Shown here piece by piece: positions 32,740-48,551 of a stretch of DNA of 64,000 nucleotides. Position 1 is the first letter of the stretch; the number at the start of each line of letters is the position of its first letter. Origin of the DNA: Escherichia coli (GTDB taxonomy: Bacteria > Pseudomonadota > Gammaproteobacteria > Enterobacterales > Enterobacteriaceae); NCBI RefSeq assembly GCF_003019035.1, contig NZ_CP027447.1; one strand, 5' to 3'. Made by a program: the position numbers and the translations under genes. The notes under the pieces were generated by a model. It was given only the letters and a program-made list of their open reading frames with translations, ran no database searches and was not told where the DNA came from.

Positions 32740-33354
32740 TTAATGACACTCCATTTTATTTATTATACTACAAGCACAACGATGCACTCAGAGACGTAAT
32801 CTCTGGCGCAGCCAGATGCTAATTTATAAGTGTTAAATGTTGCTAATAATTGAAAAGCCAGGGCTTTCAGATCCGGGGGGGCGACTGGTTAATGTTTTTA
32901 TGCAATTCATATGTTAAGTGTTTGTATGTTTGGTATGTATAGTTATTTTGTTTTATACATTGTATTTAGATGTGATTTAGTTTGTCAATTAATTGCATTT
33001 AAAAAATATGTTCTGTGAACAAGTATTGTTTATATACATTATGTGAATGTAATATGCGAGTGATTGAGAATGATACAGTGATATATATAATGCGAATATA
33101 ATAGTTTTATTATATGTATTGATATTGATAGAAATAATGAAGTAATAAATCTCGTAATGTGGTTGTTTATGCATCACTAAAATGAAGTGTAGTAATTTTC
33201 CCAATTGTTAGAACGGAGTAATTGCATATTTAATCTTTCCTTTGCCGTTTTTTTGCTAAGAATAAAATCATCTGTGCGATAACGACTAATTCTTTTAATG
33301 AATGTTTTTATTCCTGAATACTGCTCCCATAACAAGACAGGGGAGCAGACAATC

Positions 33355-34317
33355 ATGGCAATTTCATCGCGTAACACACTTCTTGCCGCACTGGCATTCA
33401 TCGCTTTTCAGGCACAGGCGGTGAACGTCACCGTGGCGTATCAAACCTCAGCCGAACCGGCGAAAGTGGCTCAGGCCGACAACACCTTTGCTAAAGAAAG
33501 CGGAGCAACCGTGGACTGGCGTAAGTTTGACAGCGGAGCCAGCATCGTGCGGGCGCTGGCTTCAGGCGACGTGCAAATCGGCAACCTCGGTTCCAGCCCG
33601 TTAGCGGTTGCAACCAGCCAACAGGTGCCGATTGAAGTCTTCTTGCTGGCGTCAAAACTGGGTAACTCCGAAGCGCTGGTGGTAAAGAAAACTATCAGTA
33701 AACCGGAAGACTTGATTGGTAAACGCATCGCCGTACCGTTTATCTCCACCACCCACTACAGCCTGCTGGCGGCGCTGAAACACTGGGGTATTAAACCCGG
33801 GCAAGTGGAGATTGTGAACCTGCAGCCGCCCGCGATTATCGCCGCATGGCAGCGGGGAGACATTGATGGTGCTTATGTCTGGGCACCGGCGGTTAACGCC
33901 ATGGAAAAAGATGGCAAGGTGCTGACCGATTCTGAACAGGTCGGGCAGTGGGGCGCGCCGACACTGGACGTCTGGGTCGTGCGGAAAGATTTTGCCGAGA
34001 AACATCCAGAGGTCGTGAAAGCGTTCGCCAAAAGCGCCATCGATGCTCAGCAACCGTACATTGCTAACCCAGACGTGTGGCTGAAACAGCCGGAAAACAT
34101 CAGCAAACTGGCGCGTTTAAGCGGCGTGCCTGAAGGTGACGTTCCGGGGCTGGTGAAGGGGAATACCTATCTGACGCAGCAGCAACAAACGGCAGAACTG
34201 ACCGGACCGGTGAATAAAGCGATCATCGATACCGCGCAGTTTTTGAAAGATCAGGGCAAAGTCCCTGCCGTGGCGAATGATTACAGCCAGTACGTGACCT
34301 CGCGCTTCGTGCAATAA
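33355..34317 (+). CDS. tauA: taurine ABC transporter, periplasmic binding protein
   Basis: 320 aa from MAISSRNTLLAALAFIAFQAQA (signal peptide). Confidence 0.95.
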   Translation: MAISSRNTLLAALAFIAFQAQAVNVTVAYQTSAEPAKVAQADNTFAKESGATVDWRKFDSGASIVRALASGDVQIGNLGSSPLAVATSQQVPIEVFLLASKLGNSEALVVKKTISKPEDLIGKRIAVPFISTTHYSLLAALKHWGIKPGQVEIVNLQPPAIIAAWQRGDIDGAYVWAPAVNAMEKDGKVLTDSEQVGQWGAPTLDVWVVRKDFAEKHPEVVKAFAKSAIDAQQPYIANPDVWLKQPENISKLARLSGVPEGDVPGLVKGNTYLTQQQQTAELTGPVNKAIIDTAQFLKDQGKVPAVANDYSQYVTSRFVQ

Positions 34318-37783: not shown

Positions 37784-38308
37784 GGTCTGCCTGATGTTTG
37801 TGGAATCGAGGGGCATAGTATACCTGAAGCAGGGTAGGGATGTTTTACGAAAGTTGTCGCGATGTTGACAAGAAGAGAATGGAAGAGAGGCCAGGACATC
37901 TTTGTAATAGAAATAGCAATAATTTCATATTCACTGAAAATATTTTTAATTTTTATTTATAGTCATGAATTATTGTTTTTGGGGATTTGGTTGCGTTATC
38001 AAAAACGGAATGATTTAAAGTTCATTGGTTATTGATAGATTATTTGTCTGGTTTGTGTGTTTGATATTTTAAATGCATATGCTTTAAAAATGGAAATCCT
38101 GTTAACTTGTTGAAACATTAAGCCTTTATCAATTTTTTCTTTGTGTGTTACTCCGTGCTTTATATATGTCCGTAACCGGACTTCGGGGAAAGAATAATTG
38201 AACCATTCCTCAATAACGCCGCATAATCGTTAGCGCGAAACATAATATGTTTTCTATGCATTGATAATTGATGGATCAACTTATTACGTCCCTGAGGAGG
38301 GATGACAA

Positions 38309-46733: not shown

Positions 46734-47828
46734 TTACATTGTGGTTTTCAGTGCGTTATCTGCAGCGTGACGCTCCAGCGCCAGCTCAATCAAACGCGTG
46801 ATCAGGTCGGTGTAACCCAGACCGCTGGCTTGCCACAACTTCGGATACATACTGATGTTGGTGAAGCCAGGCAGGGTGTTGATCTCGTTGATCACCACTT
46901 CGTTCTCTGGGGTTAAAAACACGTCTACACGCGCCATGCCTGCGCATCCCAACGTTTGATAGGCCTGAACGGCAATCGCCCGGATCTTATCGTTGATTTC
47001 TGGCGCAATGGCTGCCGGAACAACCACTTTCGCGCCATCTTCGTCAATGTACTTGGTGTCGTAGGCATAAAAATCGCTGGTTAGTACGATCTCGCCACAG
47101 GTGCTGGCTTGCGGATTGTCGTTGCCCAGAACTGCGCATTCGATCTCACGACCTTTGATCCCTTGCTCAACGATCACTTTATGGTCGAACTCGAACGCCA
47201 GATCGACGGCAATTGCGTACTGTTCTTCACTGGTTACTTTGCTGACACCAACAGAAGAGCCCTGATTAGCCGGTTTTACAAACAGCGGTAACCCCAGTTT
47301 AGACTCCACTTCGGCAAAACTGATGTTGTGACGATTAGCGCGCGTCAGGGTAATAAATGGCGCAATGTTCAGCCCGGCATCGCGCAGCAGACGTTTGGTG
47401 ACATCTTTATCCATACAGGCCGCTGAAGCCAGAACATCAGAACCTACAAACGGTAAATTGGCGACCCGCAGCATTCCCTGCAAGGAACCATCTTCGCCCA
47501 GCGTACCGTGGACAATCGGGAAAATGACATCCACCGTCGGCAACGGCTGACCGTTTTGCGCGTCGATAAGCTGATGTTCATGTTTACCAGGCACCTGCGC
47601 AAGGCTGGTCGCCGAAGGGCGCAACGCAATATGGGCAGGATCGTCTGCATTTAGCAGATAATTGCTGGCATCGCTGACGTGCCATTGCCCTTGTTTATCA
47701 ATGCCCAGCAGCACAACGTCGAAGCGACTTTTATCAATGGCATCGACAATGTTTTTTGCCGATTGCAGAGACACTTCATGTTCCGCTGATTTACCACCAA
47801 AAACGATTCCTACCCGCAGTTTTTCCAT
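46734..47828 (-). CDS. ddlA: D-alanine--D-alanine ligase A
   Basis: 364-aa ATP-grasp ORF beginning [26 protein letters not shown]. Confidence 0.96.
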
Positions 47829-48290
47829 CTTAAAAACCTATCCCGTCTAACACAAAGTGCATACATTACCACGACAAAACGGGGGATTCGCGGCCTTCTG
47901 ACAGAATGTTGCAATCTTCTGCTGACAAAGCGTGCAACGTACTGGTGAAGAAAGTGCGTTATCTCAATGATGTGCGCAAGATCACAAAAATGATGAACGG
48001 GAAGCTAATTTATTCCTGGCTTGTATGGCCATGCAGTGAGTTTTTTTCTCTTAATTATAAGTTAACGAAGAGAATATATTTCATAACTTTTATTTATAAT
48101 AAAGGTTGATAATTAAAAGCCTATATTTTGTGTGGGTAATTATTAAAATAAGAGAAACGTTTCGCTGGTAATCAAACAAAAAATATTTGCGCAAAGTATT
48201 TCCTTTGTCATAAAAATAATACTTCCAGACACTATGAAGTTGTGAAACATAATGTTAACTTCTCCATACTTTGGATAAGGAAATACAGAC

Positions 48291-48551
48291 ATGAAAAATC
48301 TCATTGCTGAGTTGTTATTTAAGCTTGCCCAAAAAGAAGAAGAGTCGAAAGAACTGTGTGCGCAGGTAGAAGCTTTGGAGATTATCGTCACGGCAATGCT
48401 TCGCAATATGGCGCAAAATGATCAACAGCGGTTGATTGATCAGGTAGAGGGGGCGCTGTACGAGGTAAAGCCCGATGCCAGCATTCCTGACGACGATACG
48501 GAGCTGCTGCGCGATTACGTAAAGAAGTTATTGAGGCATCCTCGTCAGTAA
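48291..48551 (+). CDS. iraP: anti-adaptor protein IraP (stabilises RpoS)
   Basis: 86-aa ORF beginning [30 protein letters not shown]; upstream of phoA. Confidence 0.92.

Follow-up and report, generated by a model that had tools for sequence, protein, structure and literature searches.

The stretch analysed here, a window of 64 kilobases (kb) from a non-K-12 Escherichia coli chromosome, carries the gene order yaiY, yaiZ, ddlA, iraP, phoA, and the subject of this report is the DNA between ddlA and iraP (47829-48290, 462 base pairs (bp)). IraP controls the stability of the stress sigma factor RpoS. The original prediction had described this gap as AT-rich, and this is borne out by a GC content of 34.4%, compared with 52.1% across the window; the right half (48040-48289) falls to 25.6%, within the lowest 0.26% of all 250-bp windows. 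Equally AT-rich DNA occurs elsewhere in the 64 kb only at 32785-33370 and 37813-38263 (minimum 21.6% and 24.4% GC over 250 bp). The segment 47700-48400 is 100% identical to the top complete genomes among the matches listed. The features of the gap and its borders are as follows.

46734-47828, minus strand: ddlA, left border of the gap
47829-47928, minus strand: ddlA promoter and 5' untranslated region (UTR) module; 47829-47910 conserved beside ddlA in many genera, the part to about 47928 within Escherichia
47863-47871, minus strand: candidate extended -10 element (TGgTAATGT) of the ddlA promoter, read from the sequence, in a block conserved across genera
47906-48109, plus strand: 67-codon open reading frame (ORF), a 'hypothetical protein' of the Prokaryotic Genome Annotation Pipeline (PGAP), judged accidental
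47971-47986, no strand: CRP site TGTGCGCAAGATCACA (consensus TGTGA-N6-TCACA)
47987-48018, plus strand: conserved block AAAAATGATGAACGGGAAGCTAATTTATTCCTG with a -10-like TAATTT at 48006-48011; 27-nucleotide (nt) match at 81-89% identity in more than 35 loci
48019-48057, no strand: fast-evolving junction DNA, 27 of 30 columns variable among Escherichia
48058-48290, plus strand: iraP upstream module, AT-rich, linked to iraP in Citrobacter and Salmonella (blastn and alignment A3)
48150-48167, no strand: RbsR-like palindromic box AAGAGAAACGTTTCGCTG, 18 bp, centred 65.5 bp upstream of the P1 start
48212-48224, plus strand: iraP promoter P1, with -10 AAAAAT (48212-48217), discriminator AATACT and start at 48224 (67-nt 5' UTR)
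48253-48268, plus strand: iraP promoter P2, with extended -10 TGtTAACTT (48253-48261) and start at 48268 (23-nt 5' UTR)
48277-48293, plus strand: iraP ribosome-binding site AAGGAA (48277-48282) and ATG (48291-48293), invariant columns in A3
48291-48551, plus strand: iraP, right border of the gap

The composition of the gap becomes intelligible when it is compared with the same interval in other enterobacteria, for which an IraP alignment scan with one genome per species yielded 80 loci. The distance from ddlA to iraP is 1.6-2.4 kb in Salmonella, Enterobacter, Lelliottia and many other genera, and the interval in Salmonella, Enterobacter, Lelliottia, Leclercia and others is occupied by an extensin-like gene (PF06904) and a gene for a transporter of the major facilitator superfamily (MFS). 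This transporter is a paralogue of mdtG, scoring 543 bits against NF007372, just below the 571-bit cut-off. Only the transporter gene is found in the slot in Yokenella and only the extensin-like gene in C. amalonaticus, and neither is present in Escherichia and in three Citrobacter strains. A sensitive blastn search of the E. coli gap against all loci gave a three-part pattern of homology. Gap positions 1-82 accompany ddlA (in Citrobacter, Salmonella, Enterobacter, Lelliottia, Kosakonia and others), positions from about 230 to 460 accompany iraP, directly upstream of it, in other genera, and a core of 27-38 nt in the middle of the gap (about 47967-48008) matches the spacer between the extensin-like and transporter genes in more than 35 loci. 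No coding remnants of the lost genes were detected in the gap by blastx against eight neighbour proteins (best E-value 0.35). As the promoter block has been kept and the coding sequence is gone, E. coli retains the promoter of a gene that it lacks. On this comparison the gap in Escherichia is a deletion scar, in which both coding sequences have been lost and three non-coding modules kept, and it is highly probable that gene loss produced the whole gap, a non-coding stretch serving ddlA and iraP, which are transcribed away from each other. C. koseri and Klebsiella oxytoca have a different pair in this slot, a LacI-family regulator gene resembling idnR and a gene for an MFS transporter of the galactonate type (L018 106-2270; L074 124-2271), which shows that genes between ddlA and iraP have turned over repeatedly.

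The middle module consists of a CRP site and the conserved block that follows it. In the window the site reads TGTGCgcaagaTCACA and matches 9 of the 10 half-site bases of TGTGA-N6-TCACA. A Footprint-seq preprint (2026; PMC12871828, Table 1) lists the site as ttTGTGAtcttgcGCACAtct, with its K-12 centre at 401077 and the label 'ddlA / iraP', as one of 37 high-affinity CRP sites not described earlier; it was bound in vitro with an estimated dissociation constant (Kd) of 1.2 nM. Other genera have a perfect TGTGA-N6-TCACA at the homologous site ahead of the mdtG-like gene, and the presence of the CRP block upstream of the MFS gene was confirmed in 14 genomes of other genera examined. In an alignment of these regions (A4) the core is formed by the CRP site and then the conserved block, with perfect CRP half-sites in the consensus TGTGACTTGTTTCACAAATATGATGAACGGGAAGATAAAAT. 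The -10 element of the other genera is TAAAAT and the CRP centre lies about 40-41 bp from the predicted start, a spacing that would correspond to class II. By homology, then, the deleted mdtG-like transporter gene has left its core promoter behind, orphaned, as the block at 47987-48018. A further observation concerns the 22-25 nt directly after the CRP site (AAAAATGATGAACGGGAAGCTAA; 47987-48008, A4 columns about 55-80), which are conserved across genera to the same degree as the CRP half-sites and beyond what is expected of a promoter spacer; they could be the site of a second factor, or the start of a tiny upstream ORF (MMNGK...) of unconserved length.

Conservation within Escherichia was measured against the third codon positions of ddlA as a neutral yardstick, at which 49.6% of columns vary among 14 Escherichia sequences. 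The ddlA module varies at only 17 of 100 columns (P=1e-11 against this yardstick), and the segment 47969-48018 at 12 of 50 (24%; P=2e-4), compared with 65% and 90% in the flanking junctions. The right half-site of the CRP site is invariant and variation in the left half is confined to the fifth base (TGTGC, TGTGT in three strains), with more variation in the spacer than in the half-sites. That 47969-48018 is conserved in a genus without the original target gene argues for a present function, and both the CRP module and the iraP module appear to be still under selection in Escherichia.

The iraP module contains the promoters of the gene. Cappable-seq start sites are given in U00096.2 coordinates, taken as U00096.3 minus 776, an offset checked against the coordinates of phoA and consistent with the position of a published FITBAR site. 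The strongest plus-strand start, U00096.2 400543 (score 297.7), corresponds to window position 48224 and defines P1, and the start at 400587 (score 167.6) corresponds to 48268 and defines P2; a third, weak start at 400561 (score 3.3) corresponds to 48242. The P1 motif ATAAAAATAnTAC shows little or no variation among genera and is fixed 73 bp ahead of the ATG in most of them, while the TG-TAAC motif of P2 is conserved across genera in a region that is invariant in all 14 Escherichia sequences. The -10 regions of both promoters are among the few invariant columns of the 16-genus alignment of the iraP upstream region (A3), and the last 160 bp or so of the module are also linked to iraP in the Enterobacter group. 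Mapped starts, matching -10 elements at the right distances and cross-genus conservation together mark both as sigma-70 promoters. Guanosine tetraphosphate (ppGpp) and DksA reportedly activate iraP transcription through an AT-rich discriminator. The sequence of P1, with its AT-rich discriminator AATACT, fits a promoter of this kind, and the activation presumably acts at P1 or P2.

Some further elements of this module are of less certain relevance. The sole plus-strand call of a promoter prediction tool, CAGACA-16-CATAAT with its -10 at 48248-48253, was rejected, as its predicted start near 48260 is not in the Cappable-seq data. A perfect TATAAT at 48095-48100 has neither a matching -35 element nor a Cappable-seq start downstream, and is probably a silent chance match in AT-rich sequence. 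A perfect 10-nt complement connects GTATTTCCTT (48196-48205) and AAGGAAATAC (48277-48286), 71 nt apart, and its second arm covers the iraP ribosome-binding site; the two arms pair in the centroid fold of a hypothetical long leader. Since the first arm lies upstream of the P1 start, only transcripts starting further upstream could mask the ribosome-binding site, and it may be speculated that such transcripts are poorly translated.

Upstream of P1, the most conserved element is the RbsR-like box. The rbsD operator of K-12, read from the genome, is CAGCGAAACGTTTCGCTG, and the box is identical to it at 16 of 18 positions, 14 of which are contiguous. Its right half-site GTTTCGCTG is invariant and matches the corresponding rbsD operator half-site at all nine positions. 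In 61 of 82 loci, the interval 115-133 bp upstream of the iraP ATG contains a match of at least 13/18; as background, only 7 of 779 control windows from the same loci reach at least 14/18. The sequence GAAACGTTTCGC has a single exact occurrence in the 64-kb window, which is the box. In the 16-genus alignment the core of the box is invariant or nearly so and the surrounding AT-rich DNA can barely be aligned. Among the loci in which the P1 -10 was located, the box centre lies 51-54 bp from it in 36, and a looser group of 14, including E. albertii (42 bp) and Yokenella (40 bp), has 35-44 bp, a distance shorter by roughly one turn of the helix. The upstream regions of purH, add and udk, which are reported secondary targets of RbsR, reach 10-11/18 at best, not above background, and so yield no motif model that could be used. 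About 20 loci are without the box, among them Leclercia, Silvania, Pseudescherichia and Cedecea; at its position in Cedecea davisae (L069), about 109 bp before the iraP ATG, stands GACTGAATCGTTTTAATA, which is more similar to a Cra (FruR) site.

From these matches we infer that the box is a binding site of RbsR. In Salmonella, deletion of rbsR lowers RpoS protein with rpoS promoter activity unchanged, through a mechanism left open by the authors, and deletion of iraP lowers RpoS protein as well (PMC10965054). Both deletions thus act in the direction that would follow if RbsR activated iraP. Ribose lowers RpoS in E. coli (bioRxiv 10.1101/2023.08.28.555190). In the mechanism proposed here, ribose-free RbsR at the box would activate iraP, and its effect on RpoS would be exerted on degradation rather than on translation; the box may in this way explain the RbsR effect on RpoS. 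The orphaned CRP site, which lies upstream of both genes, about 245 bp from P1 and 150 bp from the ddlA start codon, would now act either on iraP, as a distal promoter dependent on cyclic AMP (cAMP) or as an upstream activator site, or on ddlA, and it probably acts on one of these two genes today. A promoter directed from the CRP module toward iraP would start near 48018-48020.

The original prediction had favoured an extended regulatory region over a gene, and this stands, supported by the two mapped iraP start sites, by the in vitro binding of the CRP site and by blocks that change far more slowly than neutral sites. It missed, however, that the gap is a deletion scar, that the ORF within it is a chimera across this scar and that the middle of the gap is an orphaned promoter.

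That ORF, also part of the original prediction, is present on the plus strand at 47906-48109 with an ATG start. It begins in the ddlA module, runs through the CRP module and the junction on either side of it, and ends in the iraP module; in other genera all these modules are non-coding DNA. Its PGAP product WP_001317654.1 (with variants) is annotated in all complete E. coli genomes checked other than K-12, as well as under all the matches listed; the curated K-12 MG1655 record has no feature at this position. The possibility that it represents a real, young small protein gene specific to E. coli has in its favour this annotation, a frame that is open in most E. coli and an apparently conserved part of the peptide, KITKMMNGKLIYS; it is nonetheless scarcely credible. 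This stretch, the only one in the peptide that looks conserved, falls on the DNA of the CRP site and promoter block, which other genera conserve as an intergenic element, and E. albertii and strain E69 carry an in-frame TAG within the stretch. The start codon is not conserved (TTG for ATG in K-12, O55:H7 and other strains), and the frame is broken in three of eight E. coli strains sampled, all three of low identity and two of them also frameshifted; PGAP flags the copy of an O25:H4 strain as a pseudogene with "internal stop" and those of 25DN and PA45B as "frameshifted; internal stop". All six non-coli Escherichia lineages (MOD1-EC7003, SCPM-O-B-8794, E1V33, E. whittamii, E69 and E. albertii) have stops or frameshifts, the breaks being either stops or changes in length of the T7 run at 48041-48047 in the junction, which is T6 in other sequences and shifts the frame. 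The poor coding character noted in the original prediction is evident from the even spread of variable columns over the three codon positions (30, 32 and 28 of 68 in the 14 Escherichia sequences), with no third-position excess, compared with 49.6% variable third positions and 19.9% overall in ddlA; intact E. coli alleles differ from that of the window by four to five non-synonymous and no synonymous codons. A search of 5.8 billion proteins returned 56 relatives, from E. coli, Shigella and one Escherichia sp., with a single exception (a weak unnamed match, E=4.5e-5); no Pfam domain was found at the ORF in these relatives, and the ORF itself has no match to a Pfam or NCBIfam family. No Shine-Dalgarno sequence precedes the ATG at 47906. 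As to expression, start-site mapping and ribosome profiling had been named as checks: the Cappable-seq data, from glucose-grown cells, contain no plus-strand start between U00096.2 398889 and 400543, that is from the yaiZ region to the iraP promoters, so that starts are seen only at the latter, and the ORF is missing from the supplement of an E. coli ribosome-profiling study of small ORFs; with one growth condition and one study, the negative is a weak one. The ORF is almost certainly not a gene but an accidental open frame, and the PGAP call is very probably an over-annotation. An independent small RNA encoded in the gap, for which the long conserved intergenic blocks and the folding of a hypothetical 302-nt leader (better than shuffled controls, z = -2.4) could be adduced, is hardly more plausible. 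An Rfam scan of the gap and its flanks gave chance-level matches only (best E-value 0.92), a terminator scan found no intrinsic terminator in the gap on either strand, plus-strand starts are limited to the two strong iraP sites and the weak one at 48242, and a local hairpin at 47999-48050 (z = -2.4) is situated where the gap varies most. For this reason, and because it does not adjoin the T-run, the hairpin was also rejected as a terminator.

Two other features lie between the CRP module and the box.

48061-48092, no strand: IS1 insertion targets, with duplications at 48061-48070 and 48084-48092
48122-48144, minus strand: predicted NagC site, from a published in-silico prediction that conservation does not favour

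Two independent insertions of the insertion sequence IS1 are found here in the natural isolates Ec-U7 and RS571 (L089 3243-4009; L090 1394-2161), and in both the CRP module is cut off from the iraP module. Frequent insertion at this site is suggested by the many partial ORF proteins that break off where a contig ends, at codons 52-58 or so; 48061-48092 may well be an insertion hot spot with further IS1 copies in draft genomes. The NagC site aataattacccacacaaaatata stems from the FITBAR paper, where it is labelled 'iraP ddlA' (PMC3098098, Table 2, site 5). It was given no weight, as the region 48119-48148 is fast-evolving, with 22 of 31 columns variable in the Escherichia alignment.

The full proposal, that the box is a genuine RbsR operator activating iraP and that Escherichia in addition rewired iraP to cAMP-CRP through the promoter of a deleted transporter gene, is put forward tentatively and is, as a whole, rather doubtful. 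Several points weigh against it. The links of RbsR and of CRP to iraP expression are drawn from sequence, conservation and CRP binding in vitro, and no paper linking RbsR with iraP was found in the literature searched. The position -65.5 is unusual for a protein of the LacI family. A plus-strand start at about 48018-48020 is not seen in Cappable-seq of glucose-grown cells, in which CRP is inactive, and the -10-like TAATTT is weaker than the ancestral TAAAAT and has become GAATTT in two Escherichia lineages. The ribose effect, moreover, has been attributed to the rbsD mRNA acting on RpoS translation, and is lost in an rbsD mutant (bioRxiv 10.1101/2023.08.28.555190). A genomic SELEX (systematic evolution of ligands by exponential enrichment) study of RbsR is reported to have found only five sites.

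Part of this evidence would also suit a CRP module that is a decaying relic without present function in E. coli, which is a serious alternative although it seems less than probable. The transporter gene is gone, the -10 has drifted, no start from the module appears in glucose-grown cells, and the natural IS1 insertions divide it from iraP without obvious harm. A relic is difficult to reconcile with 24% variable columns in lineages that all lack the gene, when flanks reach 65-90% and synonymous sites 50% (P=2e-4), or with half-sites that have remained nearly unchanged while their spacer varies and that CRP still binds at about 1 nM in vitro. Similarly, the box GAAACGTTTCGCT could be bound by another factor, such as PurR, Cra or MalI of the LacI family, or be structural, and be unrelated to RbsR, an explanation that is possible and yet unlikely. 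Operators of this family share the core AAACGTTT, the genera agree poorly in the left half of the box, Cedecea davisae has the Cra-like CTGAATCGTTTTA in place of the box, and the small number of RbsR sites reported from SELEX points the same way. The invariant right half, on the other hand, is the rbsD operator half-site at nine of nine positions, and the central 16 bp match RbsR at 15 positions compared with 10 each for PurR and Cra, taking general consensus sequences of their operators. By half-site comparison with these consensus sequences, PurR and Cra were set aside as poorer fits than RbsR.

If the RbsR proposal is true, a direct pathway from ribose to RpoS stability would exist in Enterobacteriaceae, and the resemblance of rbsR and iraP deletions in Salmonella would be explained. 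The conserved box would offer a simple mechanism for the dependence of RpoS on RbsR, one that complements the rbsD-mRNA model. For annotation, the 67-codon ORF represents a probable error in RefSeq. The gap as a whole appears to be a clear case of promoter orphaning, in which two genes were deleted and one CRP-dependent promoter survived beside a different gene.

Comparison with known systems places these elements in context. The iraP box shares with the rbsD operator its 16/18 identity and the same CG-centred palindrome. The two differ in position, with no more than about 30 bp between the rbsD operator and the start codon of its gene, and the box at -65.5 of P1. The rbsD operator is generally described as repressing the promoter that it overlaps; for the iraP box, activation or an architectural role appears more likely than repression from its placement. 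In relation to the ppGpp/DksA-dependent iraP promoter, the gene, the proximal region and the AT-rich discriminator at P1 are the same, while here two starts are placed (48224 and 48268) and the roughly 390 bp further upstream form a composite of other modules. The ORF resembles the spurious ORFs that automatic annotation produces in AT-rich intergenic DNA in having no family, no conservation, a poor codon pattern and a range of one species, and differs from them in having been kept in RefSeq as a named protein cluster, with an annotation under each of the matches listed.

The iraP region of Salmonella has a PhoP-dependent distal promoter with a 218-nt leader and a PhoP-independent proximal promoter (Tu et al. 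2006; Zwir et al. 2012, PMC3335776). It is likewise long, and the RbsR-like box, P1 and P2 are conserved in it. In E. coli, by contrast, the PhoP boxes are absent, and the role of distal promoter would fall to the orphaned CRP module, whose Salmonella counterpart still precedes the mdtG-like gene, 1.4 kb away. With class II CRP promoters this module has in common the distance of about 40-41 bp between the CRP site and the -10-like element or predicted start. Finally, the ddlA/iraP site is one of the novel intergenic sites of the Footprint-seq study (PMC12871828), where it is listed without a target, whereas here it is traced to the promoter of a gene lost by Escherichia, so that a high-affinity CRP site reported without a target gains an evolutionary explanation.

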